Shown in pieces: positions 1,946 through 57,147 of a stretch of DNA of 64,000 bases; the first letter of the stretch is position 1, and each line of letters starts with the position of its first letter. This stretch comes from Amoebophrya sp. A120 (Eukaryota > Protista > Dinoflagellata). The notes beneath the pieces are model-generated. The model did not search any database and had not been told where the DNA came from. It worked only from the letters and a program-made list of their open reading frames with translations. Location: assembly GCA_905178155.1 (NCBI GenBank), contig CAJINV010000003.1, positions 3,901,600 through 3,965,599 on the forward strand, written 5' to 3'. Position numbers and translations under genes: made by a program.

Positions 1946-2188
1946 TTCGATCGCTTCACTTCGATCAGCTGGTGCGTATCGCCCCGTCTTGGAAAATAAA
2001 CAGGCTATCCAACATAGTATAGCGAGATCTTGACTGGAAACGACGCACGCATGAAAAATTGAATGCATAGTCGTGAAGATGAATAAGAAGGAGCAATGAG
2101 TTCTTCATCTGGACAGTGTACGTTATTGGAATCGCAGAAGGCCTCGTTTGCAGCACACCATCTTCGGTTTCTGAAAGAGACGTTTTGA

Positions 2189-3058
2189 AGATGTTCGCTA
2201 GTGGAGCGACGAATCAGTTACCTTGGTGGATATCCCAACCGCGACGGCGAGCCAGCGAGCCGGATCTACGACTTTTCCAGTGAAACCTTGGTGCTGAGCA
2301 AGGTCACTGACAATTGGGAAAATGCAAACGGCATGATGATATCCTGTGCAAAAGTATCGCACTCGTAGTAGTTGCCTTTGTGCATAATTACCAAGGTAAA
2401 TCAGCATGCTGGGCTAGTTTGTAATGCAATTTATACTGATGCGATGGGATGGTTTTGCACTGTATAGATGAACGGGTCGTCCAGCTCCACGCCGTCTACT
2501 ACGACAACCCAGTCTTCGGCATTGTCGCGGGGTATGCAAACCTCCCTCCGGGATGCGCAGGGCGAGCCGTTCCACGGGTCCGCAGCGCAGTTCCACGGGT
2601 CCGCACCGCAGAAGCATCTGCATCAGCTGTTTTCGTCGTTGACCGATAGTACTAGCGTTGGAGGTGCGGGCACAACTACAAGCAACGACACGTCGTCGTT
2701 GCAGCAGGAGATGAACTACAACCCCACAAATAATACTTCTTCCTCGTTCAGCAGGCTCGACCGCGACCGGCGAATACAGGCGGGGCAGCCAGTCGTTGGA
2801 CCGTTGCCACCCCCTGGAGATAGTAGTATCTTTGGTGGATCCTCTTCACGCAAGAGCAGTAGAAGGCGGTCGAAGCCTAATATGGTAGTACCCGAACTGG
2901 TAGCTACCAGCAACACTTCGGGCACGAGCTCCGGCACGAGCCACCTCGTCTTCAAGAAGCGGGGCGACGATGGATCGGCAAAATTGCCCTCGAGGAGGAC
3001 CAGTGGCAGCGCAAAACGAAACTCTGGCGATCACAAGAGCAAGACCAAAGCGGATTAA
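2189..3058 (+). CDS. Ser/Thr-rich hypothetical protein segment interrupted by one TIR element
   Basis: ORF 2468..3058 extends about 50 codons upstream (..RIYDFSSETLVLSKVTDNWENANGMMNGSSS..) once element 2340-2466 and one GATGA copy are removed. True start and end are uncertain. Confidence 0.45.
2340..2466. mobile_element. Short degenerate TIR introner-like element (127 bp), DR GATGA
   Basis: Left end TATCCTGTGCAAAAGTATCGCA; reverse complement of right end TATACAGTGCAAAACCATCCCA. GATGA at 2335-2339 and 2467-2471. Contains an in-frame stop; excision rejoins the frame. Confidence 0.7.
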
Positions 3059-4542
3059 ATTTGTTCCAGTCCTCGGGCAAGCAACGCTGCACCCGACATC
3101 AGGACCTCGTCGCACCCTCCACAAGGAATCCGACCCGGCGAAGCAAAGCCAAACTTTCCGGTACACCTGGATCGCTGAGCTGCTTCACAATGAAAAGAGG
3201 CAACCGCGGGACGAGGAGAAATTAGTACGTAGGAAAAGTAAATAAACAGTACACAATTAGTTTAGAAGTTTGAGTACGTCGAGCGCTTAGAAGTGCCTCT
3301 TTTTTGCGGTAAAAAAGACCAAGAGACGATTTATTGAAAGTCAAATGAACATAGCAATGAATAAGATACTAGCTCGTCGCGACAAAAGCAATTCCGATGT
3401 GCTACTTAAGTTGATCTTAGATAAACGAATTCTGAAAAAAAATCCAGCGGCCACTCCAAACGCATCGCAACCCCGGTTGCAAATGCGATTGTGATGGTAG
3501 AAGAGTCCTGGCTCTGGCTGAATGACACTTCGTAAATAAAAAGCGACAATGCAAAAATGCAAAACTTGCGTAAAAACTTAATGAGCCACACAACCTGGTT
3601 GCGCTTTCTTATTTTTTATTCCTGCATCTCTAGTGTTTCATCTTTCACACAACATCGTCGCACTCTTAAAGTTCCGGTACGCCAATCCCCATACTATGCT
3701 ATGCCAAATCCTATCTAATGAAATAGTTGCTCATTGTGACAATTGTTTTGTCTTGCAATGTACCGAAAACGACCTGTGCCCTCCTCTATTTCATTTAAGT
3801 AGCTTCAAAATGTTTTTTCTACCACCACGAACGGTCGTGAATCCTTTCGCCAGAAAAGAAACCATCATAGTTTGAAAAAATATAAAAAGAATGTCAATCT
3901 CAATGCTCGAAAGTCTTGCTTTTCGAGGATATTTCTTCGATAATTGGCAGCTCCTGCTCTCTTAAGCTGAGTTAGTGATGGTCGCCACATCCTTCTTCAC
4001 TATCGAATGTCTAAGTCTTTTACAACTTTCAAATATTTCACTTTATCCATGAAAATGATAAAGGAGCGAGTCAAAAGATTGTCTAGCAGCATGGCGAATA
4101 TGTTTCGCGGCGTAGTTTTCTTTGTTTTCTTTACTTGTGCACTCTTCGTTTAGGTTTTTCCTCCTGAAGAAACGAAATCACACTTGAAAAACTTTTGTAA
4201 CGTAGTTTCTACTTAGAACTAGAGCGGTTGCGGTTCCCCGCGGTTCTTTCTTGTCAAAAGGTAGCAGTGTGCCCACTAAACCGTCTTGACAACTGAAGCA
4301 TTTGTGCTTCTGCATTTGTTTCAGCTTTGGTAGTTTTTGAGTTTCAATGTGTGCGTCCGTGTTGCCAATTCTTCGCCGACGACTCTGGCTCATCGTTTTG
4401 TCGGACCTCCGGCACTCCAGAAAAGCGAAAAGGAAAATTATACCAGATGTAGTTGTCCAAAATGTCATGCAGGACTAGATCGCTTTCCGATTCCGAAGCA
4501 GCGGCTGCAAAACTTCCATGATTAAAAAACACACACAAACAG

Positions 4543-4948
4543 ATCCCGGATGAAAAAGAATATGGCGAAGCAAGTATTACAGTGAAAAATGCCCCCACCC
4601 CAGAACTTGGCAGAGTCTGTGTTGCAAACTTTCCCAATAGAAACATTCCCCGTCTTGCATAATTCAGCATCACAAATTTCTAATGCGGAACAGCTAAAAT
4701 TTGTGTTGCGCGAGAGCCCAGCAGCAGCCGGGGCTGTCATGTACTTATATTTATAAGATGCCTTACTCGCCTAGGTTCCGCATCAGAAAGAGTCATAGTC
4801 CTTTCATGCAAGACAAAAAGTTTTCTTCTGGAAACTTTGCATCAGAAATTTTTGCAAAATCCGGGGTGGGGGCATTTTTTCTTTTGATAGCAAGTCCAGG
4901 AGGAGGATCCCGAATACGAGCGTCAGCGCCGCCTAACAAACGCTTTAG
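4543..4948 (+). CDS. Putative internal exon split by a TIR element (..MKKNMAKQ|VQEEDPEYERQRRLTNALG)
   Basis: Acceptor acacacaaacAG at 4542 and donor ttag|GTagtt at 4949. The frame is open only after removing 4575-4889 plus one GCAAG. Which gene it belongs to is unresolved. Confidence 0.45.
4575..4889. mobile_element. TIR introner-like element, family C (315 bp), DR GCAAG
   Basis: Left TATTACAGTGAAAAATGCCCCCACCCCAGA; right reverse complement TATCAAAAGAAAAAATGCCCCCACCCCGGA. GCAAG at 4570-4574 and 4890-4894. Internal GCATCACA/GCATCAGA motifs. TIR and length resemble 54187-54502. Confidence 0.85.
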
Positions 4949-5884
4949 GTAGTTTAACATATAATTCCTGTTGTTTCTTCGTTTTCTTGAATTGATGGCC
5001 TGTTTTCACTTCCAATAAACCACCGTGTAGCAGGTTGTCGTGAAGAAGTAAACGTATGTAGTCGTAGTAAGTACTTATTTTGAACCTGCGAAGCAGCTGG
5101 ATTACGATTATGGTATGAAATGATACAAGAACAAGATTTCTTGTCGCATCTGGTATTAATCTGCACCCCGGTGGTCTAGAGCTAGGCGGTTCTTGGCAAC
5201 ACCGAGACAAAGAACGCTCAATGAATGATAGGAAATTAGCAAAAAGATGTCCTCTCAGAGCAACTGCGGAACAGTTCGAGACGAGCCTCGTGTTGGATTC
5301 TGCTGCAGTAGGCGCCTGGCGGCGAAGACCATGACCTAGTGCGCGCGGCTTCGACATGCTGGAGAAGCTTGTTTCCGGTTCCCCTGGGGGCTTGCTCGTG
5401 AAGCATAATCGGAGCTGCCCGGATATGATTGTCGGACAGCAAAGGACAGCATTGACTTGATATTGGTTTTCTTGTGCCAGACGAAAAATGAACAATTGTC
5501 TACTTTCGAATTTCTGTAATTTTTCAAGACCAAGTTTTATGAATATGAATGTCTTCAAGAACAAGAGTTTCAGATTCAGAATGTCCTCTTTTGCGCATAA
5601 CGTTGCTTTTGATCACGATACTAGTGTCACAAGATTCATGAAAAATGGTAACAGTTGTCTCAAACCGAAAGGTCGTTCGTACCCTCTACAGAACGTGGCG
5701 TGTATCAATCTTCATTGAGTTGATTAATTTGTGGGTTTGAGATATAACCCTGTCACTGTCAGAGATTATTTTTGCTCCCTCTCATGGATGTAAATTCTAA
5801 TTTTATCTTGCCAACGGCAGCCCTACATTGGGTCATTACAACGACCTTTCACCCCGGCCCTGCAACACGTTCTTTCCTACTTCC

Positions 5885-8800
5885 ATGGAGTATGCGAAGA
5901 ATTCATTGCTCTTTTCTACCGCTGCAAGGGAGAGAGAGAGACGAGAAAGCAAGAGGAATACGAGAGGGAACATCAGATCAGAGCGCCACGCGGACGTGAC
6001 CACTGAACGCAGGGACGACCTTGAGGGTCAGGAGCCTCCCCTTTCTTCGGAGAGGCATGAGCGAGACCCACTTTTGAGTAGCGCAAAGTGTCAGCGTCAC
6101 TGGTGTGCCCGATGAGTGGAGTAAGAGAAGGACCTCATTCAAAGTTTCCAAAGAGTATGAGTGGCGAGTTTGCTCTTTTCTCTTGGAGAAATAACGTCGA
6201 CGCGAATATGTAGGTCAATGACGCGGGAAATATTAAAATCAGGTAACCCCACGACGCGCATCCACGGACTTGGGCCGGATAGTTGGCGCGACCAGGTGCA
6301 ATCCCACGCCGTTTTTCCCAATCACCATCCTCCCCAATTGTACCAGGGCTTGTTGCTACCGAAAGACAAAAACGAGGAGACGCTGAAGAGTCTGTACCAA
6401 GGGTCGTCGCGGCCGAGGGCCCAGCTGCTTCACCCTCACGCTGGCCACCACCATCTGTGGCACCAGATGCAGCAGGCACATCAAAACCAAGCCCGGGAAA
6501 GCAGCGGTGACGATGAAGACGTGGACGTCGGTAGCTTCGTGGCCCAAAAGTATGTAACTGGGACCAGCAGTATCGAATGCAAATATGTCTGGGTCTGGGA
6601 GATTCGATTGCAACTTGTCATGCGAAATTTGAATCATGCAAAAATCCGTGTTGCTTGAGTGCCAAAAGCAGTCCACTTTCGACGAAGCTGGGACGGAGTT
6701 TCTCATGCAGGAGAGGCATGACGATGACACAGAGACAGACATCACAGAGTCTGTCATGCTTGGTCCCGCATTCCAGACCTCATGGATCATGGAAGACCTG
6801 CATGACAAGTGTACACACTTCCAGACCCAGACATTTTTGCAATCCATAAGCAGCCGGTTGTACGGAGCTTCGGGCAGCACGAGCAGCAGGATCGTGGAAA
6901 ACCCGTCCTGGCAAAGTCGTTTTTCCACTACCTCACATATTCGGAAGCCGACGGCGGGCCGGGATTCGTCGGACTCGGAGGAGGAGCAGAGCGAAACAAA
7001 AATTATGAACAAGGCTTTGGTATCCTGTGCGAAAAATATTACCACCTCTGATCTGCCACATTCTGTGCATCGTTCGAAAGAAGCTACAATGTATGACAGG
7101 GCACGTGCTGACTGCCCAGGGCTGTCTGTCACCGCACAGTGACGAGAGCTGACCAGTCTGTGGACGAAGTAGCTTCCTCGGTAAAATTTGTCTTCTGTGC
7201 AGTCGTGAAGTTGCGGTGATGCGGTCATACATCGCTGACTACGTACATGATATTCGTCTTCGCGAGCTTTGTTTTTGCACAACGAATGCTGCCGCTGGCA
7301 GGGTGAGTCGTGTTTCTGCATTTGAGGATAGCTTGCTCAAAACCCAGGTGCCCTCCCTTGTCTGATGCGTCAAACCGCATATCATGACCGGCAGATGAAG
7401 CAGATGGGTCAGGCTATGTCAAAGAGGAACGAGAACGCAATCCACACTAATAATGAAGAAGAGGAAGAGGATATCACCCGCACAATCGACCGCATACGTG
7501 AAGTGGCAAGAAAGAACGGGAAGATCGACCCGACCCACATGCCGGACCATCCCATCAACATCGCCGAAGGTACGATGAGCGGTTTCCTCACGAGGACCAG
7601 CGATTCCTCGTCCTCGCCCGGGACGACCACGACCAGGACGGGTGCAACTACGTCCTCGCGGCAGCCGCGTCCACGGGTGCAGCACAAGCTTGAGCCCCTG
7701 GATCCCATTCAGCAAAACGTGGCCAAGCTTTTGATGGCAGAGACACAGAAGACGAGCATGGCCGCAGCAGAGACAGGGTTGCTGACCTCCAGCAGCGTGG
7801 ACGTGACGAAAATTAGCAAAAAGATGGCAGAAGAGGTTCCCCGCGATGAGCACGTGGTGGACGAGGAGTTGATGAAAATGCTGAGCTCCAGCAAAAGGGT
7901 ACGTTCGCATCTCAACATTGACGGAGACAGTGCCGCGGCAAAGAACATGATCGACAGCGACGCGGGCGAACGGCAGTACCGCGTAAACAAGGAGAACAAC
8001 AATTATGGCACCGCGGATGAGATCAACATGAACAAGCGGGACGAAACAAGCAAACCGATAGTACCGAAGTTCGCAACCCGGGCTGCTCAGCTGCAAAACA
8101 GTCGCGCTGGTGGTGGCAACCATTTCATGCCCACCACGAGAAACGCGAACCCCCTCCAGGCCGCATGCAGTGCGATCCAGCTGAAGCCGTCCAAAACGAC
8201 CGGTACACTCACGTTTTCCCGTCGGGAAGTGGAAGTGCTTAAGCACGAAAGCACCACCAGCGAAGAAGAGGAGGACATCATGGAAAACAAAGAAAAGCAT
8301 AACAAGGAGACAAATACTTCTAGTGAGAACAACTACAAGCAGAAGAATGACACCAGCACGCTGAACATGAAAAAGTCCTCGCTTGTTGACGAACCGACGA
8401 AGAACGATGAGGTGGAGGAGGTAAAAATAAATCAGAGAAAAAATGTCATCAAGTGTAGTACAACGGACCGTTCTATCAAATGTAAAAATGTCTGGGTCTG
8501 GAAGATTCTGAGACTTGTCATGCATGTTTTGCCTCGGCCATGATGTCTGTGATGCATGCCCTAGCATCACAGATTTTTTGAGGGCTTCGCGATGCCTCTT
8601 CCGCATGACAAATGCCCTCTCCGCGTAGCAAGAATTACACTCCCTTTGCTGCTCATGCAATACAGATTTTTTTGGAATCCAAATTCAGCATCACAAGTTG
8701 CATTCTTCCAGACCCAGACATTTTTACATTTGATACGTTCGGATGTTGAACAGCGGCAGGCGCGATCCGCACTGCGGATGGCGTATCAACTGCAAAAATG

Positions 8801-10349
8801 TCTGGGTCTGGAAGATTGCAACTTGTCATGCTGTTTTTGGACTCTAAAAAAATTTGCATTGCATGACCAGCAAGAGGGGCGCGCTTTGTGCTACACGGGC
8901 ATGGCATTTCTGATGCGGAAGGTGCATCAGGAAGCCCTCTAAAAGTCTGCGACGCTAGGTCATGCATTACAGGCATCATGGGTCATGAGAAATATGCATG
9001 ACAAATCTTGCATTCTTCCAGACCCAGACACTTTTGCATTTCATATGGCGAGTTACAAGCGACTCGGGGTAGTTCCCGCTGTGAACGATGGTCCCCCATA
9101 CGACCTCGATGAGCAGGCTCTGAAAAGAGAGAACGTGAAATACGCGCCCACGACCTCCGACCGCGCTTTGTGTCCCTTGAGCCAAGGGAATTATCTTTTT
9201 GAAAAAGATAAAGAAGCGAATGATGTTGAACAAGACAGCGTAAATTCCGCCGACGAAAGTGCCGTGATAGGTGCCAACGATCGCAATTGGCGACTTTACA
9301 TGGAAGAGGGTTTCAAGATCCGGCCGAAGGGCTCCTCCTCGTACCGCACTACAGGAGGCGCAGCTGCCCGCATTACGGGAGGTGCAGCTTCAAAGACGTC
9401 CACCTCATCTGCGGCCGTTTCTAGTATTCCATCGACGGCAGGACATGCACATCCTGCGGGAACAACGACCACGACGGCCGCAACCAGCAGCATCAAAACT
9501 CTGGGCGGGGGTGTTAAGTCCGTTCAGAGCTGGCGGGGCGAAATCAAGGCTGTCGCGCAGAGGAGGAGGCAGGCGGCTGCACAGGAGGTGGAACATCAAG
9601 CGCAGGCCGCGCAGGAGACTACGCAGTCGGTAGCGGAAAGCTCCGAGGAGTATGTGCAACAGCTGATTACGCGCGTCGTTGCCCAAGCTGCGTCCACCTC
9701 CGCCGCGGCGTGCAGTTCCTGCCCCAGTGATCATGATACAGCCGGAATAGTAGGTGTGGAGCATGGAGTGGACGCCGCGATTGTTAGTGGAGGAGCATCG
9801 TCCTGCGACATAATTTTCGACGAGGATCTCAAATCCCAATCCGGCGACGAGTCCGACCGTGGTCTGCACAACGGTTCTTGTAACGACAGCGACGCGAGCG
9901 GCCACACCATCGCAGAGGGGGACGATTTTTCCCCTTCCGGGGGTCCTCGGCTCGGAAGAACTACGTCTGTCGACTGCTTGTCGGAGAAGACACTCCCAGG
10001 AAAGAGGAATTTTTACACAGGACGAGCGCCGGTAGGCGTCGTGAGACCGCCGGTGACCTCCACGGCGCCCAAACTAGTACCCAGTGGAGCAGCTCGTGGG
10101 GACACCAGCGGCGAGGAGGAACAAGATGTCGGTCTTGTTCCTAGCAAGCAGAACGTAACTATTTCCTCGTCGGAATCGGAGTCTGAGGACAATACCTCCC
10201 AATCGGCGCAATATCTGCGTTTGCATCGTGTGCAAAAGAAGCTGAAAAAGAGGAGCAAAGAAGGCGCAGCCGCCAGGGAGCTGTCGAACTACAGCAACGC
10301 CGAGTCCGCATCTGGATCATCCGTCGACACCCCACCGGCGGGGGCGTGA
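5885..10349 (+). CDS. Large low-complexity hypothetical protein, interrupted by four TIR elements
   Basis: ORFs 6161, 6636, 7365, 8592 and 8985 join into one frame on element excision: ..YVTGTS|SRLYG.., ..TTDRS|DVEQRQARSALRMA|SYKRLG... The 5' end is uncertain. Confidence 0.65.
6571..6848. mobile_element. TIR introner-like element, family A (278 bp), DR AGCAG
   Basis: Left TATCGAATGCAAATATGTCTGGGTCTGG; right CCAGACCCAGACATTTTTGCAATCCATA. AGCAG at 6566-6570 and 6849-6853. Excision restores the frame. Confidence 0.92.
7021..7330. mobile_element. Degenerate TIR element (310 bp) that now fits an in-frame GT-AG intron (7020-7331)
   Basis: Ends are TATCCTGTGCG.. and ..GCATTTGAGGATA. DR is not conserved (TTTGG/GCTTG). 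Decayed internal motifs GTATGACA and GGTGATGC. G|TATCC..GGATA|G gives GT..AG in frame with ORF 7365. Confidence 0.5.
8474..8735. mobile_element. TIR introner-like element, family A (262 bp), DR CGTTC, reverse orientation relative to 8784
   Basis: Perfect 32-bp TIR TATCAAATGTAAAAATGTCTGGGTCTGGAAGA. CGTTC at 8469-8473 and 8736-8740. Confidence 0.95.
8784..9045. mobile_element. TIR introner-like element, family A (262 bp), DR TGGCG
   Basis: Left TATCAACTGCAAAAATGTCTGGGTCTGGAAGA; right TCTTCCAGACCCAGACACTTTTGCATTTCATA. TGGCG at 8779-8783 and 9046-9050. Confidence 0.95.
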
Positions 10350-12763
10350 AAACAAGATGCGACGTCGTGCAAGTGGCTCAGCAAAAGTCGTTGCATCGAG
10401 GTCGTCGATCTTTTGGTTGGCGCGCTCTGCTTTCACGATTTTTTTTTTTTTACGCAGGTCGCAGAATGAAAGAACCATAGATAACCAACGCAAACAATGA
10501 AATTCGTATTCATGATGTCCTCCCACCGCGCAGGAATTCGAGTACGTGGCTGCGCAGGCGCGCGCGCCGATGATATTTGCCGTTGAACATAAGCGAAATT
10601 TGTCAAAGTCAGAAAGTATGTTGTATATCACAGAGACATCAACGGTCTAAATTTTTATCGCGCACCTTTGATGAGATCCATGCCACTAACTTTTATTCTT
10701 TTGCAAACACTAGAATTTGGATTTGCTGTATTTGGATTCACTTGTACTTGCTCACGATGAAACCATCTGCGTTTCGTAGCGCTTATGGGTGGAACATGGG
10801 CTTTATGCTTTTGCATATCTTGCTCCTCTGTTTTGCAGGACTGTAGTCGTCTCGGATCCATGAATTCGGCACTACGCAGACGTTCGATTCAGTACGAGGA
10901 AGCATTTTAAAGTTTTTATTTGGAAATTAAGTATTCAAGTCGCGATGTTGAAGTTGAAGACTCCTTCTATGTGTAAGTATTCGATTCTAGTTTCCCTCTT
11001 TCTTTTTGGTTTTCCGATGAAAAATTGCGGGTTTTTGCTAGGGATGAACCTCGCTACAGATTTAGAAATTTATACGTTTTCAGCAGTTTATTCCTGACTT
11101 CATATTTCGTAACTTTTTGCCTTAGTGTTAACAGCAGCTTCGTTTCGGATTCCGCAACTATGATTGTGAGTCTTGCACCGAAATTTATCAGTACGATTTT
11201 GAAAACAACGAACTACAACATCATGGATTGTAGCCTTGTTTTAAATAATTTTGCGATTGAGTACGTTTTTATACTAATACAGGTCGTCGACGTCGACGAG
11301 GTTTCGTTCTATGCTTCTGTCAAAACAGATTGATATATTCAAGTCTTCGATAAAATTGTCAAGTTTTCAGCGTGTATCGGCAGACACAAACACTAACACA
11401 AAGACCCCAGAACATATCACTTCGAATTTCTTACAACGTTGTAATTTGGAAAAGTTGAAATCAACATAATCAAGGTCAACCACCCAGCACAGGAGAGTCA
11501 ACTTTTGTTGCCCAATTTGACCGGGACTGGCGACGTGACCGGGAAAGATGTATTGCTTTTCTCGATCATGGCACGACATGAAATATCCGGGGGCTGCTAT
11601 GTAGATGAGAATGACTCATAAAAACGAAAAGGAGCAGGACGCTTCCTAATCGGTCCAAGCGCACTTATCTATAGGACTTCTCGGTTTTTTTTTCTACTGG
11701 TCCAAATCGTGATCGGTCGTGGAACGTCTGTATTCGTTCAACAAAACTCAAACTGTATTGGTTCGGTATCGTTCGGCTTGATACTGCCCTGCGACTTCCA
11801 GTTTCAGGCTAACCCGGAAATCCACGAGAGGTCCACACACTATACACAACCAAAGCCAAGGCATCAATCTTTTATGACATGCTTTTTTCGTTTTCTTTAC
11901 ATTGCTTCAGCCTAATTTCACAGAACTCGTTTCTATGAAAGCTTCAGTTCGCAGTTTGTCAGTACAAGTGCTTACTCCTGTCCTCTAATAATCTATCATT
12001 TGATTTTTTTCTGTAATATGCAAGAACGAATACTACAATGGAAGCAACTCGCAAAGACGATGCACACGCACACGCAGCAAAGGTGACAGCTGGACACTTC
12101 GCGTTACACTAATTCGCGGTCCTGGCACGTGCATCGATATTTTTTCACATACAATTTTTCACATGGTCATTTGTTGAGTAATCATAATCACTTTCTTGAA
12201 TTGCGTTTGCGGTGTTCCGCTTGATGTTGATTGTCTGCCAGTGTATATGTAGAAGCTGCTGATTGAAGTGTATGCTGTCAAACACAAAGATCGAGACCCT
12301 CCACACAGCTCGCGGCTCTTGTCCCCAACATCGACCTTTCCGTTGCCAACTTGATCATCCGCACGCCTTTCGTTGATCCGTGACAGAAGTTCAAACTCTT
12401 GATCCCGTCGTGTCGATCACGATTTCTTTGCTGAACCAAAGCATGGCTTTCCTCCAAAAGCCGGATCTACTCACATGGCCTAGTCACGTGGCGATCCCGA
12501 TCGAATTTGCAAGAAGACTTCTTACATGTTATGGCACAATGCGTTCGAAGTCGTGTTAATGTTAAAAAAATCGAGTTCTTCTAGACTGCTACGCATCAGG
12601 GCGGAGCTGTAGCTGTTTACGAAGATTCTTACTGGTTGGTTGAGCTTTATTTGCGAACGTCTCTCAGGGCGGAGCACGCGAACTTTTTTCCTGGTTACTG
12701 TGTCGAAGTGATACGTACCTCTACCTACTCAGACTCCTCCACAAATTTGTGCACGTCCGAAAA

Positions 12764-15454
12764 ATGAAAGTTGTTCTTCTATTTTTCGGCGTGAACGCGG
12801 CTGCCTCGGTAGCTGCGGCCGTTTTAGGGTCGTCCGGCTCCACCTCAGCACCGGGTGCCGCGTCCTCCTCCTCCTCCACTGGAGGGGGCCTCGCGTGGAC
12901 CATTCCAGTGAGGTCCACGTTCCTGGGCAAGAACGATGAAAAGACGATCACAGCCTGGCCGTTTTGCGAGAACTACCCCGTGGAAAAAATTTCTCCGCTC
13001 GACGCCGCTCGCATCTTGGCGGCCTACGCAGCCTACGATCTGCCGTTGGTCGCGCCGCCGGTCGGTTCTTGTCCAGTGGAAGAGAAGCGCGATTTGTTCG
13101 AGTTGCGTTCTCTTCCCTTCACCTGCACCCAGGGCGCCCGGCGTGGCAGCTCCCCGGTCTGGCAGAGCCGCCCAGAGCGCTTGGACACGATTGAGAAGCT
13201 TTTGACCCGATTGGCCGGAGACAAAACGAGCACGCCGGACTCCGTGAATGACGTGAATTTGCGCCGGCTCTACGACGAGTGTTCTCCTTTGCGGCAGGCC
13301 ATGAGCCCGGATCAGGAGCCGTTTTTTTTGCATTGCCCGGGGAAAAACGAGCATGTAAAGGCAAAAAGGTTGCGAACCAGCCAGCTACAGCAGAAGCAGA
13401 AGCCCTACGTGCCTGAAATGTTCGAGTTCTTGTTGGATTTCATCCTGCAAAACGACAACGCCAAGGCGCACGCGGGAAACTTGTTCAAGTTGGAAAACTC
13501 GCGGTATTCGCTGCTGCTCCACGCCTTTGCGCAGGCGCTAGAGAACGAGGACCGAGAGGCGGTGAAAGCGCTACCCGCGGCCGCGCGGGCCGCGGCGACA
13601 GCCGCGTCGGAGGACGACGAGGAAGGTTCCGCGTCCGACAAGGAACAAAGGACTTCCGCAGGAGGCCCGCTGACGCGAGGACTTGTCGCGACGCCGCGGG
13701 TTGCAGCTTCTTCACAGGAAAAATGCAAGAACCTTCCGGACGAACAAGAAAACGGCGCTCAGAATCGCGAAAGTGGTGAGCGAAGTGACAATGATGCGGA
13801 TGGTGATCATGCGACCACCCCCCAAGAGAAGCCGAAAAAGAGCCAGGACTACATCAATGCAATGGAGTTTCTACTGAACAAGTACTACGCAACCAATGAG
13901 CACTTGCAATCCGACTCGCTTGGTGACGAGCTGGTTAACGTGAACGGCGAGGGCGAGTCCACCTTTTTGGAGTACGTGCTCAGCAAGTGCGCGGATCACA
14001 GCACGCAGATGGCCCAATTGAGGGGCGAATTCGAGGAGCAAGACGAGGACGATCTGGAAGAAGACGAGGAAGAATCGCAAAACGGCCTGTCCGACGCGGA
14101 AGCTGAGGCAGGGGCCTCCAAGAAGAACTCGCCAGAAGGAGCCGAGGGCGCCGGGGGCGGCACGAGCAGTACCGCGGATCGTAATCGGGGCGCAGCTGGT
14201 GCGGAAGACAAGAAGGAAGACGAGGAACAACATGGTTTAAACCAGGCGCTATTGGAAGAGAAACCACAGCAGGGGGTTTTGACGAGCAGTCCCACGTGCG
14301 CGTTCCTGATTCCGCAGCTCCTGGTTCGCGGCGCTCGCCTCGTGCCCGGACCGATTCAGCTTGCCGCTGAACAAACCGCGCTGCACGATGTCTTCCCCCT
14401 GTTGCTTCTGAAATTGCAAGGTACTTAAAGTTGCACCTACGGCCGTGTCGGGGATGTTTCTGACTTGCATAAAGAGCACTGCTATTGCTTAGTATCCTGC
14501 TACTGCTCCACCTCCATCAACGTATTGTATAACGATACACAGACGTCCAGGTGGTGGTCACTTTTGAATTTAAACGAAAAAAATTACAATGACAGAGACC
14601 CTTGGCGAAGAAGAGGCCAAAACCGCGATTGAAAAAGCGAATGCATTGCACATCGCAACGAAGAATGACAACCTCAGAGGTAAGTACTGGCTCCTGTGTC
14701 ATCCAACGTATTTCATCACAACTAATTTAGTATCTCACACGCTGATCACTCAAGAGAGTCACACAAGGCAAGCAAAATTTGTATATCGTAAAGTCGCCTT
14801 GCCCTTCCTTGCTTTGAAAAGAAAACCTCCGCTACAGGTATGGCGACCCTCGGCAGATTTGGCATTACTGTGCGCGGGAAAGACAAGGACCGCGAGGGCC
14901 GCACGGCTCTGGAGCTGGTGCAATCGTCGGCCGGTCTCGTGGCGTTGCTGAAGCCGTTGGCCAGTTCGAAAGACAAAAACGGTTCGGCCCAGGACTTTCT
15001 AAAAGATTTTCCACTCACGGTTTTGATGGACAAGAATCCGCAGTTGTTTCTCACCCGCGAGGACGACGGTCCGACGGGGCTGGGCGGTTTCGAGAAAGAC
15101 GACGTCGCGACCTTGTTGGATATCCTGTTGGATTACGTCGTCACGCCCGGCAAGGGAGACGCGCTGCAGGAGATCGAGAAAGTGGCGTACCTGAACCACC
15201 AGTCGCCCGACACGGGTCGCACGGCCGTCTTCAAGGCGGCGATGAATCTGCAATGGGAGCTGTATGACGCCTTGGTGGCGGCGGGCGCCGACGACACGGT
15301 CGCCGATAAGGAGGGCCGGGTGCCGAAAACCTTCATGGAGCAGTACTACAAGGCCAAGGGCTGGCCCTTGAAGTCGGATCCCGAAAAGGAACAGGAAGAC
15401 GAGGAGGAGTCGGAGCAGGAAGAGGAGGACAAGGACGGTACATACTGTAGCTAG
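12764..15454 (+). CDS. Ankyrin-repeat protein with a putative N-terminal signal peptide
   Basis: Hydrophobic start MKVVLLFFGVNAAASVAAAVLG. Ankyrin-like motifs ANALHIATKNDN, GRTALELV and TGRTAVFKAAMNLQWELYDALVAAGADDTVADKEGRVP. GT-AG introns near 14421-14551 and 14680-14837. Confidence 0.7.
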
Positions 15455-16526
15455 AGGCAAATATAATTATGCCGCCAGCTTCCGTGTTCGTTGTGGAAAA
15501 GCAAAAGATCGAAAATCAAAATGAAAAGTCCACGCACAAGTGTGTGAAGGGCAGCGGATGTTGCGCATGTTGTAACGGCGTATTTTTTCATGTTTATTTT
15601 TACATAACGAACAAGAATAAAATTCAAAAACTAAATCAGGCACCGACAGCAACGACAGCGGGGCGGCTGCCTCCAGCCATGGCGGTAGCGAGGAAAGCCG
15701 TGGTGCAGCCGAGCCGGCGCCGGAACGGCGGGGAAGCTTCTTGGGTTTAGGACGAGTGCTGTTTAGCAGCAGCAAGTGAACGCAGAACGGCGCGGGGTCG
15801 AAAAAAGAAGGCGCGCCTTCTATTCGACCCTGCAAAGGAGGTCCATGAGAAACCGCAGAACCGCTGGAACCGTGCTGTCACTACCACACATAAGGAATTG
15901 ATGATTGCATTTCTTCTAATTCGAGAATTAACGAATGAAAATATGATGAACAATGAACAACTTCTTGCTATGAACCTCAACCTATGAATGAAATCCGATG
16001 ACGCCATGCTATCCGATGGTGAACAACTACTGCTTTTCGACCACTTTCACGAAAATTTCGAGTCTGGACCACGACTGGTACATTAACATCCTGAACTCTC
16101 GTGCTTGTCCGAGAGTTGGACACGAATTTGCACTACTTTACCTTGCAGCTTCCGAAAAAAATTCACCTGGCTGTGGTGCAGCTCCAACTCTGAACGCGTG
16201 TGTGTAGTCCGTATGGATGCGTTCCTGCTTCTTTAGGACCCTGCCTCTGTTCGACCGCTCCTGTATTTTCGTCCCCGGCGGATCTTTCTTGTTGTAGACA
16301 CGGAATCGTTCGATGCACTTTTATTTCCGGTGGGCAACTACGAAGCTTCAGTTGGCACCACGCATGCCACAACAATTCCCAGTGTGCATGCATAGTATCA
16401 TAAAAACACGCAGTGTAGATGTAGTTGAGCTTCTAATAGCTTCGTTCAATATGATGCATTTCCATTTCCATTTTTAGCTGGAATCTTTACAGATTGTGCT
16501 TCGTTCATCTCGTTTCTTCAGCCACT

Positions 16527-19500
16527 ATGTCAGGTACCCTGATCATGAGCTCGGGCGCAGGTCCGCCGGCGCTACAGCATCAAGCCGGTCACCACCCCGC
16601 AGGAGCCGCCGACGTCAACAGTCATCACGAGAATCTGGATCATTTTGACGCTCTCGCGGCGGAAGATTTTGACCCTATCGCGTTCCTGAACAAGCAGTTC
16701 CCCTCGGAGAAGTCCCTGCAGCACGTGGACAAGGTGATGCAACAGCTGGACAAGATTGCGGCGACCATCGATACGGAGCTCCGGCACGCGGTACACGAGC
16801 AGGCACGCACGGGGTTCCGCGCCAAGGAGGACCTGGAGCAGGCTAAGACGGCGATGGGCGACCTGATCACGCGGGTGAAGAACGTGCAGTCCAAAGCCCA
16901 GCAGTCCGAGTCGCTGGTGTTGGAATTCTGTCGGAACATCAAGTTCCTCGACCTGGCGAAGAAGAACTTGACCAACACGGTGACCGGATTCAAGAGGTTT
17001 GTCATGCTCGTGTCCGCTCTCGAGCAGCTGCGCCGGCTTGCCGCGGAACGCGAGTACAAGAAAGCCGCCCAGTTGCTTCACGCTTGCGAGGAGCTTGCGC
17101 AGCACTTTCAGGGCTTGAGCAAGGTGGTGCAGAAAGTGCACGACCTCTTGCGACAAAAGGACTCACTACTGGCGGATCTGCGGGCGCAGATCTTTGAGGA
17201 CTACGACGCGCTACTGGACCCAACCGACGTGGATCTACGTCGCGAGGACATCAAAGCCGCAGCGCACTGTGTGAATGCCATGCCCACAAAGACTGTACGC
17301 CACGAGATTGTCACAAGATTTTGCCTGCGGATTTTGGAGGACTACAAAAAAATCTTCTCGCCCTCGCAGAGTCAGACGGCTCTTGGGGTTGGCGCGCCCG
17401 GTCAACCAGGGGGGGCCGGTGGACCGGGCGGTCAAGCCTCGCAGCAGGAGGAATACTCGGGCCTGGAGCACGTGGAGCGCCGCTATGCATGGCTCCGCCG
17501 CACACTGAAGGAATTCGACGACAAGTATCTCGAGTTCTTCCCTTCTTTCTGGGGCGTACCGTGCTCGCTGTGCGAGCATTTTTGCCACATCACAAGACAA
17601 CACTTGGTGGAGGTGCTCGGCGCTACGCACCACACAGCTGATCCGGAGCTCCTGGTGCGGGTGTTGCGAAAAAGCATAGAGTTTGAGAACGACCTTGCGA
17701 AAAAGTTTGCGGCGTCGGCAGATAAGGACGGTAATAACAGGGAGAGGCAGCTGCAAGCAAGAAGTCCGGGCGGAGAGGTAGGAATCGCATGTAATAGATA
17801 TTTCTGCTCTTATTTATTCAACAGGATGCCGGGCGGGTATCCCCGACAAATTGCGCCGAACATAAACAAAAGATACTGTACGGAAATATGTCAGAAAAAT
17901 CTTACAAACAGAAACCCGTGCGGCACATCTCGGAGTTCGTGACAGAATCCGACCCGGGAGCAGATGCGGATCGGGCCGATCCAAGCCGGGAGCTGCCGAT
18001 GGCCTTCGTGAAGTACGGATTCAGTCCGACGAAGAGGGCACAGCAGGCGTCACCAGAGGACAGTAGCCACCTCCCCCGCTTCCGCGGCATCGTGTCCGAG
18101 TGCTTCGAAGCGTACCTGGGCACGTGGGTAAACTACGAGGCCAGCAACTTGAAAGCCCTGATTCCAGAGCAGGAAGACATGCCCCAAGTCGAAACGGGAA
18201 CGACGGGACCCGCCAGCGCAGAAGAGGATGACGACCTCGGGGACGACGACTCACGCTACGTATCCATTGTTGCAATAGTGCCGCTGCTGATGATGATGTT
18301 GTTTGCGACGTTATTTTCCCCAACATGCCCTCCCCTGAATAACAATAAATCCATCAGGTTTTCCCCTCCGCGCCTGCCCTGTTCGACGCGATGCGGCGGG
18401 TGATGATGAAGTGTGTCTCCTTCAGTATCGACCAGACCTTGTTCGAGATTTTTCTGGTGTTTAAGCAGACCGCGAACCTGTACTGCTCGACAATTCACAA
18501 CCGCGTGAAGAGAATGACGGTGGGCTCGGGCTACGTGATCTCCGACGAGGACCTCAAGATTGCGTGCGCCTGCATTGGCACGTTGGAATACGTGGATCAG
18601 ATGCTGCCCCAACTGTCCGACATTGTCCGGCAACACCTCACCTCAGGAACAAGCACATCGAGCCAGTACCAGAATAAGATCGACTTCGATTCCGAACAAG
18701 AAACGCTGGGCGCGATCACCGCGTCCATTTACGCAGACGTGCTGGTGAACTACCCTCGGATGAGTACCCTGCTCGCCCGCCTCAGCGCCACCATGATGAG
18801 CCACTACGCTCAAAAGTTTTCAAAACGCGGGGCTGGTGGTGCAACAGCGCAGGGAGGATCAGGTGGGGACATTACGACCGCGTTGGGACAGCACCAGCAG
18901 CCACCGTCCGCTGTTGCGTCCTCCAGCGCTGCCTCGTCGTCCGCTGCAGCAGCTAATTCCAGTAGTTCCAGTGGCTCAGCATCAACATCTGCGCCGACCG
19001 TCTCGCCCTTTGTTGCGGAAATTGAGGACATTTTCACATCGCACTGCTCCCTGACCAGCGGGTACTTGTCCAAGTTACACTACAGGTTTTTCTGCGACAA
19101 GCACGCGCAGTGGTTCATTCCGCGCTTCACCCACGAGATTTACAAGTGCCGCGGGGTGTCGAAGCAGGTGGCGCGGCAATTTCTCATGGACGCGGTTGCC
19201 ATCAAGAACGTGCTGCTACAGGTACCCGCCGGAGCGCTGCGTGCGCGCTCCGGGGGTGCATCATCGCAAATCAGCATGCCTACGGCCTACAGCAATTTCG
19301 TTTTGCGGGAGTTTGGTCGCGTGGAGTTCATCTTCAAAGTGTTGTCCGAGGAGGAAGAGGCCGTGCATCGATTGAACCACGGCGTGGACGTAACACAAAA
19401 GGAAATCGACCAGATTCTGATGCTCAAAGAGGGCGCAGCCATGGACGATGAGATGTTCAATCCGGTAGATGGCGGCGATCTGTTGGGCGGGGGCAGTGTC

Positions 19501-19665
19501 GACCCCGCTGCGCGAAACAACCCGTTTAACTTTGTGCAGTCCACATTGCCAAACGTGAATCCCTCGATGAAACAGTTTGCCAGCGACGCACGAAAGCAAG
19601 CTGACACCATGAAGCAGCTCGCTGCCGACGCACGGAAAAAACTCTTCGGAAACATCAAGTTTTGA
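16527..19665 (+). CDS. VPS53: GARP/EARP complex subunit Vps53
   Basis: FDPIAFLNKQFPSEKSL, IKFLDLAKKNLTNTVT, LEHVERRYAWLRRTL, FCHITR, FRGIVSECFEAYL. Canonical introns at about 17778-17911 and 18260-18357. Confidence 0.92.
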
Positions 19666-20453
19666 TGAGAGCTTAGTTTTTGAATGAAACATTTTGCGGC
19701 ATGTTACTGCTTAAATTTGCCCTCCTGTGAAGCTGAAGGCAAGTCCTGCTTGCTTTCTACATTCGGAATGCGATGCACGCCAGATTGAATAGTTGTCTCT
19801 TCTATAAATACTTCTCTCTGATTCTGTCTCGTGGATCGGTTTCTGAAAAAGTTCGGGTTTCTCTGCGTCACGAGTTCCGCCGGCTTGCTCGATACTACAA
19901 TCGAAATCGGTTTTGTGCTTGTTTATTTTTCTCAGTTGATCTGGTTGTATTCAATTTCAAAGCGAAAGTGCAAAGTCCGTCGGTGTATTTTTATCATGAC
20001 GTATTCTACATACATCGGATGGCTTTATGTGCGAAGATAGGGGAGGACAAGACCAAGAGTCAGATATCTTTAGATAGAATCTTTCCCAGATGAAGATTCT
20101 GATTTCGTTATTGACAGCCCCTACCCCCATTCGCAAGTGGCTGTCCAAGTTTTAGCGAGACACACCCATTTATTGATCCCCTGACCACAACATGCTGGTC
20201 CTTGTTTATCACCGCCTCGTCTACTTTCAACAAGGAATCCTCGACACTAGATAGTAAATTTGGCACCTTGATGTTACAACTAAACGTCTGCGAGTACCCC
20301 TTCCCCTGCTTCATTTTGGAGCTCTTGCTATTCGAATCGAAAGGTAAAGGAGCAAGTGTCGTTCATGCGTACTAGGAGATAATAGATACAGTACAACTCC
20401 AAGTTGTACGAAGACGAAGAGCATTGGCGTCATCCCTTCCTCAGACCAAGTCG

Positions 20454-29312: not shown

Positions 29313-29437
29313 GGTCGTCGGCCAGGGCAGCCGCCGCCGGCCCAAGAAACACCAAAAAGAAACTCCAGGCGAAGCAGAAGTCGCGACAATTGAGAAACTG
29401 AATGAATTTTGCGCACTAGCACTAGGAGCAACCGGCC

Positions 29438-52673: not shown

Positions 52674-55600
52674 ATGTTCGTGATTTCCCCGGAGGAAGCT
52701 GCAGAAGGCGTGGTAGACCAGGTTGTGAATGCGTCGCAGTCGTTTCTGCAACAGCAACATGCGCACCTGGACACCCCTGCCCAAAATCCTGTTTTCTTTT
52801 CTGGTGATGCAGCAGCCCTCACCCCGAATCGTATGGTGGAACCTCATCTGCTCGCAGAAGAATTTTCTTCAGCGTCGACAATGCAGCTGGAGTACCCGCT
52901 TCGCGACCCCTCCGACACGACGCCGGAGGCGATCTGCCTGCGCGTACTTTGGTTTCTGATCATCTTGACGCCACTCCTGTTCACCTGCTTCGTTTCCATT
53001 TTCGCGATCGGATGTCCGGCGTGCTGTTCGTGTTGCTGCTTCAAGGAGTACGTGTTGGAAGAAGACGAGGACTCAGACGAGGACGGGAACGGAAGTTTGG
53101 CCGCCAGCAACCGGCGGGGCGACGTCGCAAAGACGGGCGATACGCTGACGCCGTCGGCCTACTATCGGTTCGAAAACAACCCGAATGCAACGCGGATTCC
53201 GGTGGGCACGATGGCGACACCCCCCGAATCCCAGGCGCTGTTGTCCAAGCCCGCGGCCTCGTCCACGACCCGGGGCTCAAGCCTCGGCAGCACCGCGTCC
53301 AGTACTACAAGTAACCGCATCGTGGCGGGCCCCCAAAGCGGGCACCCAACCTCTGTGACGGCGACGGAAGCGGCGGCCGCGCAAGCGACCGCACGGTTGC
53401 TGCAGCAAACGGCCGGCTTCGAGGACGAGGAGGACGTGGAGGACGAAGCCGACGTGCCCGTCGCGCCCTTCAGCCTGGCCCCGACGATGAAGACCGGGGT
53501 GCGGTTCGAGGGCGAGGCCCGCAGCGAGTCGGCCTTCGTGGAGGAGGGTGGCCCCATCCGGGTCCTCTCGCGGCGGAAACCGGAGGGCGAAACGCTGGAG
53601 ACGAAAACCATGAACTATTCGCTGTTCCAACACACCCCGGCGGAGAACCAGTGCTGCCGGGTCCCGAAGCGGGCCTGTCCGGCGTGTTGCCTGCTCAACC
53701 TCGCCGTGTGGATGCTGGGCGGCTTTTTGGTGTTGTTCGGCGAGTTCATGTTCTGGAAGTGGTACGTGTACGACCCCCATTTTGAGTACAGCGAGGACAC
53801 GAAAATCGTGATCCTGTCTTCCAGCGGCGGGTCGGGCCACGTGGTCGCCGCAAACCGCCTGGTGCAGCTGCTGACCGAGCCGCCGAAGGCCGCCAACGCG
53901 ACGCACGTGGGTCCGGAGGCGGCCCGCGTGCTGCCGCACCTCGCGCCCGGCGCGGAGGAGGGCGGGTGGACCCCGTACAACGGTGGCAAGCGCTACAAGA
54001 ACCTGAAGAAGGAGGAGGTGGAGGTGATCTACGTGATGCCGCCCGAGTGCAAGAAGAACGAGACCACGGGCGAGGACATTGTCACCCCGGAGTGCGCGAA
54101 GCGGTCCTGGCTGCAGATGAACAGCGTGTTCGGGAACATGTACGAACTGATGGCCAACCACCTGATCAGCGACTTCGGGGTGCTGTTATCAAAATGAAAA
54201 ATCCCCCCTCCCATATCGAAACGAAGATTTCTGTTGCTGGATTTGTGTACACAAATCATTTTGCCATGCTAGAAGGCAAAAGAAGCGGACCGTAGTGCTG
54301 GGCGGCGCAAAAAAGCCTTGCATCTTCAGCATGAGAGGAGGCAGCTGGAAATGGGAAACGGCATGACAAATCGGCTCCAATTAAGGCCGCAACTGCGTCT
54401 CTTGGCCTTCTAGCAATACAAGTCGCTCTGTGTACTCACATACAGCATCACAAATACAAATTTCCTTTTCGATATGGGGAGGGGGGATTTTTACTTTTGA
54501 TAGCTGTTTGGCCGCGACGAGTGGGACCGGGCGCAGAAGGAGGGCGACATGGAGACGCTGTTATCAAATGCAAAAATGTCTGGGTCTGGAAGACTGCGAG
54601 ATTTGTCATGCTTGTCTGGGATGACCAAAAAGTTTGTGATGCGTGTCCAAGAAGAGACCCTTTTGCCTGTCATGCGAAAAACGCAACACTAAGAAGCGCA
54701 GATATTTCTCATGCTTGGCTGTGCATTACAGAGCATTCCCTATTCCCAACGCAGCATCACAAGTTTCCAGACCCAGACATTTTTGCATTTGATAGCTGTG
54801 GGCGTTGTACAACGACAAGCCGAAGGCGGACTTCATGTTCGGCTGGGCCTTCCGGTCCAACGCGCGGGCCTACCTGGACAAGCACCCGAACCTGGAGGTG
54901 ATGGTCACCGTGCAGTACCAGGGCACCTACCAGATGTGGGAGGCCGTGCGCGACTTCAACCAGGACCGGCGCGCCGCGGAGGAGGCGGACGTGCGGCGGC
55001 CGTACGACCGCGACGTGCACTTCGTGATCCAGATCTGCGACCCGGCCAACCCCGACAACTTCTTCCTCCCGGCCATCAAGCGGTTCCAGGACTACTCGCC
55101 CCCGTCGGAGCGCAGCTTCTACCACATGGACATGAGTTACGCGGGCGTGCCCTTTTTGGGGATCGCTAACTCCGCGGCCGAGGTGCAGCAGTTCGCGGAC
55201 GGAACGCGCCGCTACTACCATGAGGAGCTGGGCTTCACGGACGCCATCATCGACATGATGCGGTTCATATCAATTGCAGATTTTGATGTCTGGGTCTGGG
55301 AAAGGAAACTTGTGATGCAAGGAAGGGATGAATAGTGAAGTGAGCACACCGTAATGGTGCGCTTCACAGTATGACAAGTTTTTCCGTGGTTCAGAGTTGC
55401 GTACTTACTCCGCATGAAAAGCTGCGTTTTTTCATGACAGACAAGAGGACCTCCTCGCTGGCGCGCAATAGTTCAGAGTCATGCCAGCCTAGCATCACAA
55501 ATCTCGCAATCTCCCAGACCCCGACATATTTGCAGTTCATAGCTCACCGACGGCGTGATCCGCCCGGAGTTCCAGCAGATGGCCAACAAGATCTACCTGG

Positions 55601-57147
55601 GGCAGGTGGACCCGGCGGTCGAGCGGACGAAGGAGCTCCGGTATCAAATGTAAAAATGTCTGGGTCTGGAAACTTGTGATGCTGGGTGGCGTCTCATGAT
55701 GAGGCTACAAATGCTGGCTCAGCATGACAAGTTTCTGAGCTCCTAGGTGTTGCCTATTCTGCATGACAAACTGCGCTTCTGCATCACAGAAAAGCGGAGC
55801 GCTTGGGTAACGTGCATGACAGATTTAAGAATCATGCCAGACAAGCATGACAAACATGAATTCTTCCAGACCCAGACATATTTGCATTTGATATCCGGTT
55901 GAAAAAGCTGAAAAACGTGAATGGGAAGAACATGTTATCCTGTTTAAAAACGTCCCCACGACCTCCCCATAGTTTGTTAAGATCGGAACTCTGCTAGACA
56001 AATCAGCACGCTGTGAGACTGGCCCATGACAAGTTTGGGGACGCAGCATAAGTAGTTCTGCCTAGGTAGCCCAGACGCATCACAGATCCATTTTTCCCTT
56101 ATCCTGATTTGCGCATGACAAGTTACCGAAAACACGATCAAAAAATGCCCGTCATGTTGCGGAGCCGCATGACAGATTTTCTGGGCATGCAGATTTGCAT
56201 TACAACTAATCGGGTCGGAACGTTTTTACTCAGGATGCATGCAGGAAGATCTCGTCGTGCCGAAAGACCAGCACGTGGTGGCCATCATGCTCGGGGGCGT
56301 GGCCGCGATCGCCCCCACGTTGGAGTACGTGGAGCAGTCGGCCACCCGCACCGTGCGAAAAACGCCGGACGGCCAGTACCAGCTGGCGGACATGTGTGAA
56401 ACGAAGACGATCTTCGTCTTTTGCGGAGGGGACCCGGACCTCGTGAAGGCGGTGATGAAGAAGGAGGAGGAACTGAAGAACCGTGCCGGACCGGGACCCG
56501 CGGAGTTTCGCCAGAGCCTGCGCATTTTCGCGCTGGGTCGCCAGGGCGCCGACGTCATCGCCCCCGTCTTTGCCCGTGCCAACACCCTAATTGTTCGCGG
56601 AGGTAAGAAGTTGATGTAGTGTGCAAATTAAGTATTGTATCAGTGTGGATACATATCGATAAGTGTGAAACAAAAGTCAGTGGATGAAGCAGGAGGGCGC
56701 ACTGCTAAGATGGTGGAGGAGTTGCACAATTCTTCAATCAGAATCATATGAAAAGACATTGATCTTGATGTCGATGTGATGTTCATACTTCAACAATTCC
56801 CCACAGGCGGCGTCACTGCGTTCGAAGTGCGTGCGGTTGGGCCGGGGACGGACTTGGTGGTGCACTCCGAGCGGGCGATCAAGCCGCTGAACCACGAGCT
56901 CGGCGTTTGCACCAAGGGGATGCTGTCCCACGAGGCGGGAAATGCGGCGTGGGAGGGGGACGCCATGGGTGGCGTGGTGCTTTCCGACCTCAAGAAGCGG
57001 CTCCGGATTCTGCCCGACCCCAAAAAGGGGTTCATCACCCTCGGACGCGAGCGCAAGGGGTATCCCTGCCTCGCCCCGCAAGACGAACAGTACGTGCTGC
57101 CGTTCGCGAACGTCGGGTACACCAAGTCGCTTGGTTGCGGCCCCTAG
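52674..57147 (+). CDS. Membrane-anchored GT-B glycosyltransferase, GT28 / MGDG-synthase / UgtP-like; five TIR elements plus one GT-AG intron
   Basis: KIVILSSSGGSGHVVAANRL, DGVIRPEF, VAIMLGG, IFVFCGGDPDL, ANTLIVRGGGVTAFE. Continuous only after five excisions and intron 56603-56806. Two hydrophobic segments lie upstream. Confidence 0.75.
54187..54502. mobile_element. TIR introner-like element, family C (316 bp), DR GCTGT
   Basis: Left TATCAAAATGAAAAATCCCCCCTCCCATATCGAAA; right reverse complement TATCAAAAGTAAAAATCCCCCCTCCCCATATCGAAA. GCTGT at 54182-54186 and 54503-54507. Confidence 0.93.
54562..54794. mobile_element. TIR introner-like element, family A (233 bp), DR GCTGT
   Basis: Perfect 30-bp TIR TATCAAATGCAAAAATGTCTGGGTCTGGAA. 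GCTGT at 54557-54561 and 54795-54799. Confidence 0.95.
55268..55541. mobile_element. TIR introner-like element, family A variant (274 bp), DR GTTCA/GCTCA
   Basis: Left TATCAATTGCAGATTTTGATGTCTGGGTCTGGGA; right TCCCAGACCCCGACATATTTGCAGTTCATA. The join gives MR(F/L)TDGVIRPEF. Confidence 0.9.
55642..55893. mobile_element. TIR introner-like element, family A (252 bp), DR TCCGG
   Basis: Left TATCAAATGTAAAAATGTCTGGGTCTGGAA; right TTCCAGACCCAGACATATTTGCATTTGATA. TCCGG at 55637-55641 and 55894-55898. Confidence 0.94.
55936..56237. mobile_element. TIR introner-like element, family B (302 bp), DR CATGT/CATGC
   Basis: Left TATCCTGTTTAAAAACGTCCCCAC; right reverse complement CATCCTGAGTAAAAACGTTCCGAC. 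The join gives GKNM|QEDLVVPK. Confidence 0.88.

Follow-up and report, generated by a model that had tools for sequence, protein, structure and literature searches.

The 64-kb window analysed here (positions 3,901,600 to 3,965,599 of contig CAJINV010000003.1 of Amoebophrya sp. A120; coordinates below count from its first letter) contains a forward-strand gene that is interrupted by four introners. Two of them, designated E1 and E2, belong to one subfamily and lie in opposite orientations on either side of a 43-nt micro-exon. In transcript contigs both are removed and the micro-exon is kept. The features of the locus, including the terminal inverted repeats (TIRs) and target-site duplications (TSDs) of the elements, are:

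6241..10349, forward strand: host gene, at least 991 codons once the four introners are removed, with a frame open from at least 6241
6571..6848, forward strand: third introner of the host gene, in the orientation of E2, skipped in contigs of runs X1 and X4
7021..7330, no strand assigned: degenerate introner of the host gene with a TSD matching at 2 of 5 positions, only short pairing of its TIRs and no exact copy of the internal motif; skipped as element plus 5 nt
8469..8473, forward strand: left 5-bp TSD of E1, with the right copy at 8736-8740
8473..8739, forward strand: intron 1, 267 nt; the length is observed and the exact ends (CT..TT) are those predicted by a common -1 register
8474..8735, reverse strand: introner E1, 262 bp, with a perfect 30-bp TIR (TAT..ATA) and an interior reversed relative to E2
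8740..8782, forward strand: micro-exon, 43 nt, kept in the transcript and slidable within the TSDs
8779..8783, forward strand: left 5-bp TSD of E2, with the right copy at 9046-9050
8783..9049, forward strand: intron 2, 267 nt; the length is observed and the exact ends (GT..GC) are those predicted by the common -1 register
8784..9045, forward strand: introner E2, 262 bp, with TIRs matching at 27 of 30 positions and an interior oriented as in the elements at 6571, 20871 and 27309

An earlier note on this DNA had described E1 and E2 as 262-bp elements with reverse-complementary interiors, and pairwise alignment bears this out. E1 and the reverse complement of E2 are identical at 210 of 262 positions in a gap-free alignment. 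With the TIRs set aside, 148 of 192 interior positions match as reverse complements, whereas a same-strand comparison gives 55 of 192. Local scores are 147 on the opposite strand and 21 on the same strand (shuffled maximum 23 in 300 controls). The TSDs are perfect 5-mers at both elements. Since each element carries one such duplication, its removal takes out 267 nt and is in frame; the 48-nt spacer between E1 and E2, less one TSD copy, leaves the 43-nt exon. In the host frame there are three stop codons in E1 and one in E2.

The 4147-nt contig of run X1 consists of positions 6241-6565, 6849-7019 and 7335-8468, a 42-nt piece, and positions 9045-11491. Its joints at the pair run from 8468 to 8736 and from 8777 to 9045, with the micro-exon kept, and a 1712-nt contig of run X4, from another sample, shows the same two 267-nt skips around the retained exon. 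No skipping of the micro-exon, with both elements leaving as one intron, was found among the 15 of 20 joints listed for positions 2001-22000, in contigs that reveal the major form only. Retention of one orientation and joint removal of 577 nt, two of the outcomes that the earlier note had named as refuting its idea, were both absent from the joints listed. The longest stop-free frame is 991 aa with both elements out, 567 aa with E1 kept, 611 aa with E2 kept and 551 aa with the pair taken out as one 577-nt intron; only the form with both elements out and the micro-exon kept yields the long frame.

The contigs of X1 and X4 thus agree with the earlier proposal that the 43-nt exon joins the open reading frame (ORF) at 7365 to the ORF at 8985. 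The ORF at 7365 does belong to the gene, but the gene begins further upstream and contains two more introners (6571-6848 and 7021-7330). Because the two long exons of the host gene gave no Pfam match and no longer homolog was found for the first of them, the junction peptide is without outside confirmation. Upstream of the host gene (4946-6241), X1 contigs link one GT donor near 4949 to either of two acceptors, 5257 or 6241, a case of alternative splicing.

The contigs of runs X1-X4, labelled RNA by guess only, act as mRNA, in that these runs also skip GT-AG introns. One X4 contig starts at 52476-52486 with nine loose (non-genomic) letters and the genomic AG of 52485-52486. The five bases closing this loose end are those given as the spliced-leader end by Farhat et al. 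(2021; PMC7789003), and the site is likely a dinoflagellate trans-splice site. Run X5, in turn, acts as DNA, with one contig (55869-59700) passing unbroken, at flank depth, through the element at 55936 and four GT-AG introns. The summed contig depth of X5 over TIR bins (54353-56060) lies about four orders of magnitude above that of the flanks, which fits a very abundant repeat and is not a copy number. The raw RNA runs X8 and X9 contributed 13 and 7 reads, fitting only in part and giving evidence neither way, and outside repeats X1 and X3 barely cover the gene at 52.5-57.6 kb.

Scans, one transcript joint and reading yielded a catalogue of 18 TAT..ATA elements in the window, whose ends match the A120 repeat signature of Farhat et al. 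(PMC7789003). Their removal was tested in two stretches, 2001-22000 and 52401-59700, in which 12 of 12 elements are absent from transcript contigs; this count leaves out the six elements at 27309-35492. All seven catalogued elements of the first stretch appear as skips among the listed joints. The five of the second are missing from one X4 contig by the arithmetic of its pieces: unlisted pieces of 54 and 130 nt equal the small exons exactly, and the resulting frame is 974 aa. At 54187-54794, two adjoining introners of different families with an identical 5-bp TSD flank the 54-nt exon. Although the frame would survive the skipping of this exon, the X4 contig carries 54 nt at that place.

The earlier note had claimed that removal is strand-independent, and had asked for an orientation tally. 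In the host gene, the introner at 6571 and E2 point in the same direction and E1 in the opposite one, with removal of all three. The elements at 54562 and 55642 (score 41 versus 21), both also removed, form a second, weaker opposed case. The tally was run on a related assembly, whose metagenome contigs were scanned with one TIR variant, giving at least 136 loci (24 of 64 parts; 80 loci listed, all on JACKZZ01 contigs) that hold 224 distinct elements. Orientation relative to the E1/E2 subfamily could be assigned to 92 elements; 53 have a confident host strand and the other 39 were dropped. Read from DNA alone, the 53 copies divide into 27 sense and 26 antisense, with no strong bias, and two other element groups gave sense to antisense ratios of 12:14 and 5:12. 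Of the 53 oriented copies, 52 would disrupt the frame if retained, and three of the five loci with two subfamily copies have them opposed. It should be noted that the host-strand caller was trained on window exons and is wrong for one of the 18 window elements. A frame control discriminated weakly at 30 codons (162/178 for element plus 5 nt versus 153-155/178) and better at 50 codons (114/167 versus 84-87/167-168). Together, the skips in both orientations and the even tally support removal independent of element orientation.

Perfect TSDs make the cut slidable, so its position can be narrowed only where the TSD is imperfect. In addition to the element at 7021, two such introners are present in the window:

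55268..55541, no strand assigned: introner with a TSD mismatch at position 2, the cut limited to -3..0
55936..56237, no strand assigned: introner whose TSD copies differ at position 5, with the downstream base present in the transcript and the cut limited to -5..-1; intact in the DNA-like run X5

The element at 7021 limits the register to -1 or 0, that at 55268 to -3 to 0 and that at 55936 to -5 to -1. The only register common to all 10 junctions examined, of which these three are informative, is -1. Assuming one register for all, the 5' cut would precede TAT by 1 nt and the 3' cut would follow ATA by 4 nt, so that the intron would read N-TAT..ATA-NNNN and the cut would be asymmetric (-1/+4). 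At 7021, the junction removes 315 nt (1 nt of homology, in frame) despite homologies of 3 and 4 nt at 316 and 317. This passing over of better homologies, seen in one element, suggests that the element ends are the reference from which the cuts are measured, and disfavours template switching.

All eight canonical donors checked begin with GTA. With introns starting N-U-A-U, the TIR would therefore supply donor positions +2 and +3, and a U+2/A+3 donor core is present provided that the -1 register holds. The predominant A120 sites listed in Table S4 of Farhat et al. (PMC7789003) have T at +2 in 9/9 cases; the A25 sites start with TT in 9/9, and A25 repeats start with TTA. Other positions appear free. 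Among 129 perfect-TSD elements of the related assembly (147 elements there having a confident strand), G occurs at +1 in 39 and AG at the acceptor in 12, the latter as base composition predicts, and none of the 18 window elements has AG at the position where the acceptor would lie. E1 and E2 end in AG at none of their slidable positions, and neither GT-AG nor any other common dinucleotide pair is available to the two. The introners thus lack the GT/GC donor and AG acceptor of a U2 spliceosomal intron. TSD bases show no pull towards GT or AG, and their position 5 is unbiased. The commonest 3' end (8729-8735) has an A at -7 from the predicted acceptor and resembles a branch-point motif, to which TATCC-type ends do not fit.

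On the sense strand, E1 and E2 are identical at 32 of 34 positions at the start and 31 of 34 at the end. A signal within the TIR, whether directional or not, therefore occurs in either orientation, and removal in both orientations does not imply non-directional recognition. The earlier note had held directional signals to be excluded; this fails, as the ends look alike either way and the cut, as placed above, is asymmetric. Of the sites it had proposed for the signal, the TIR ends stand, whereas the internal motifs and a long equilibrium TIR hairpin do not. The elements at 2340 and 7021 have no exact copy of the motif and are still skipped, and 7021 is cut precisely although its pairing is confined to the terminal bases. 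Matching of the TSD copies was rejected as the signal as well, since 7021 is removed with a TSD of 2/5. An excess of G.U pairs on the sense strand, suggested by the window (16:7, p=0.09), was not replicated in 127 elements (G.U:A.C 98:112, p=0.37). A terminal stem is predicted on both strands in 16 of 18 window elements. Of 127 elements, 48 lack pairing at TIR position 4, 49 at position 5 and 63 at position 7.

Some further features of element structure were noted. At the 136 loci of the related assembly, TIR positions 4, 5, 7 and 10 often differ between the arms and positions 11-13 and 16-28 mostly match; the element ends are of TATC and TATG types, positions 1-3 being fixed by the scan. Unrelated families have in common an 8-nt internal motif that recurs, running either way, some 41-46 nt in from the element ends and at comparable inner spacings (e.g. 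at 8516, 8548, 8564, 8603 and 8688). This motif may be a mobilisation site.

Retention of the micro-exon is at odds with the predicted equilibrium fold. The minimum-energy structure is a 222-bp E1-E2 duplex (-356 kcal/mol, compared to -259 for separate folds) that joins the two outer TIRs and leaves the exon in a loop, and so would skip it; the contigs show no such skip. The stem of E1 alone is the predicted optimum only until the transcript reaches a point between 8820 and 8850. That the exon is kept despite the duplex optimum points to recognition that is likely local and early, although exon retention would also be explained by kinetic trapping, or by nonsense-mediated decay of the skipped products.

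On balance, we lean towards a putative relaxed spliceosome that reads only the element ends, which the TIR makes alike on both strands. E1 and E2 would each be cut out as the element plus one TSD copy, with N-UAU acting as the donor and with +1 and the acceptor dinucleotide free. The 3' site would be set by distance from ATA, and not by AG or by TSD matching, and an invariant A at -7 or -5 would be the candidate branch point. Each element would be committed locally, probably during transcription, before E2 zips onto E1. A120 is reported to retain U2, U4, U5 and U6 and 83 of 89 spliceosomal proteins (Farhat et al., PMC7789003). A fuller formulation can be put forward tentatively: the A120 machine would need no G+1, AG, matching repeats or long stem, would measure its cuts from U-A-U and A-U-A (1 nt before and 4 nt after) and would commit during transcription, so that elements could land at any 5-mer, in either direction, and be gone from the mRNA with codons unchanged.

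Several points weigh against a relaxed spliceosome. G at +1 and an AG acceptor are central to known spliceosomes, and both are free in these introners. The pattern N-TAT..ATA-NNNN holds too little information, and an extra cue (an A-run, a short stem or a bound protein) is unaccounted for. The stems predicted in 16 of 18 elements would fit a structure-guided nuclease equally well. The register comes from three elements in contigs, and the comparison with the DNA-like run X5 concerns the element at 55936 rather than E1 and E2. U1 was undetected in A120 according to Farhat et al. (PMC7789003), whose Fig. 3 legend has the border unknown or variable relative to the hairpin, and the sites of their Table S4 could carry aligner bias.

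The strongest competitor, although we consider it rather unlikely, is a non-spliceosomal endonuclease acting with a ligase, as proposed for euglenid nonconventional introns, which would recognise the base of the TIR stem, cut at a constant stagger that leaves overhangs of 1 nt (5') and 4 nt (3'), and join the exons. The freedom of both G+1 and AG, the terminal stems predicted on both strands and the undetected U1 (PMC7789003) would suit such an enzyme, and Euglena offers a parallel with a similar offset inverted-repeat code, circular excision products and factors suggested to be non-spliceosomal (PMC12501133). However, the element at 7021 is cut precisely with little in-register pairing beyond its terminal bases, the sense strand shows no G.U excess (98:112), and TIR positions 4, 5 and 7 are often unpaired, as counted above. 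In addition, the equilibrium fold predicts exon skipping, and the register coincides with the GTA donor, one of six possible registers.

Less probable still is a TIR-binding protein (a domesticated transposase or similar) that marks the ends on DNA or nascent RNA and hands them to a cutter, an arrangement compatible with either chemistry. The nearly identical profiles of the 5' and 3' arms on the sense strand, the absence of a sense-strand wobble signal and the prevalence of local end pairing over the more stable E1-E2 duplex are in its favour. Nevertheless, the candidate protein is hypothetical, and Farhat et al. found no transposase in A120 (PMC7789003); moreover, internal motifs are dispensable, and families with different TIR interiors are all removed.

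These elements have direct repeats flanking a hairpin, the classic signature of template switching. That the joins arose by reverse-transcriptase template switches across hairpins, by DNA-level excision or from a strain without the insertions, an idea aided by the guessed RNA labels and by X5 joints being known only among the rows listed (209 further rows exist), is nonetheless very improbable, because the 7021 joint uses 1 nt of homology while passing over 3-nt and 4-nt ones, all 12 tested elements are removed with frames restored (991 and 974 aa), no other differing letters between X1/X4 and the window are listed in 2001-22000, and X5 keeps the element at 55936 unbroken at flank depth.

According to Farhat et al. 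(PMC7789003), A120 has about 30,000 introners, non-canonical introns make up about two thirds of its introns, and the way in which these are removed is open. Indifference to orientation, together with a likely fixed cut position, provides a handle on this mechanism. A fixed register would replace the vague model of a hairpin bringing the ends together with exact predictions, namely the place of the branch point or circle junction and the bases that can be mutated. Freedom from orientation and target sequence would explain the harmless spread of some 30,000 introners through coding DNA, and the E1/E2 pair constitutes a natural experiment that sets equilibrium RNA folding against local co-transcriptional recognition. 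If the tentative formulation above is true, A120 has a sequence-blind, seamless splicing mode that erases transposons, performed by a radically relaxed spliceosome or a new enzyme.

Elsewhere in the window, the long frames checked via Pfam, GT-AG introns or element removal are on the forward strand, and no Rfam matches were found in the 64 kb. Most introner-bearing genes are without a Pfam match, an exception being the DHHC gene at 26044. Within the conserved coatomer beta' (COPB2) gene (58283-63047) no introner was catalogued, and skipping was seen for three introns, all of them GT-AG; the exon at 59549-60256 is 100% identical to an Amoebophrya sp. A120 protein. Two 45-nt copies, 93% alike and 49 nt apart, are located at 51942-52035.

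E1 and E2 are published non-canonical introners of Amoebophrya sp. A120, a kind already known from Farhat et al. 2021 (PMC7789003) and Gozashti et al. 2025 (PMC12130899). The introners described there have repeats of TAT followed by seven variable bases and an A-run (at least three A), direct repeats of 3-5 nt, non-canonical ends and a length of about 240-260 nt. E1 and E2 share the repeat signature, the border repeats, the non-GT-AG removal and membership of a repeated family (window copies and 92 oriented relatives in the other assembly). They are also short, numerous and randomly oriented, with TIRs and a TSD of constant length, as is typical for miniature inverted-repeat transposable elements (MITEs); Farhat et al. 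found no transposase in A120. As far as the available text goes, element orientation is unaddressed in these papers and the border is unknown or variable, whereas here the ratio is 27:26 and one register fits. The passages on 'orientation' in the text and supplement of Farhat et al. (PMC7789003) concern genes, the word is absent from 12 of the 14 supplementary files of Gozashti et al. 2025 (PMC12130899), and opposite-orientation matches were permitted in the method of Gozashti 2022. The literature searched yielded nothing on the orientation of A120 introners or on a fixed register for them, although the logos of Fig. 3 and Figs S19-S25 of Farhat et al. and two Gozashti files may show part of this. 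Apparently unpublished, therefore, are the 27:26 orientation, the neutrality of the TSD, the putative common -1/+4 register, the dispensability of motifs, stem and TSD match, and the disagreement of the E1-E2 fold with the contigs.

Introns created in either orientation have been reported for introner-like element classes 2, 3, 6, 7, 8 and 10 of Polarella glacialis (10.1101/2020.10.14.339549) and, as cited in the same preprint, for introners of Aureococcus anophagefferens. In those systems GT/GC/GA and AG sites are carried by, or recruited from, the element or TSD, whereas here G+1 and AG are not favoured; the preprint also describes a bias to one orientation, in contrast to the 53 copies of the E1/E2 subfamily, which show none. 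Closer in form are the euglenid nonconventional introns (PMC12501133, PMC11282704), which are MITE-like, with TIRs, slidable direct repeats, no GT-AG and an asymmetric cut offset. Their code, N3CDG..CH'GN5-6|R, differs from N-TAT..ATA-N4 and is not found here, nor is their purine rule at the next exon base; they have no donor-like U+2/A+3 and belong to an unrelated lineage. The non-canonical introns of Fritillaria are likewise MITE-derived and escape the GT-AG rule, and an altered U2 spliceosome reportedly removes them (PMC11282704, PMC7789003). They keep specific ends (AG-AC, AG-AT), whereas in the A120 elements both terminal dinucleotides vary except for the U that the TIR would place at +2.

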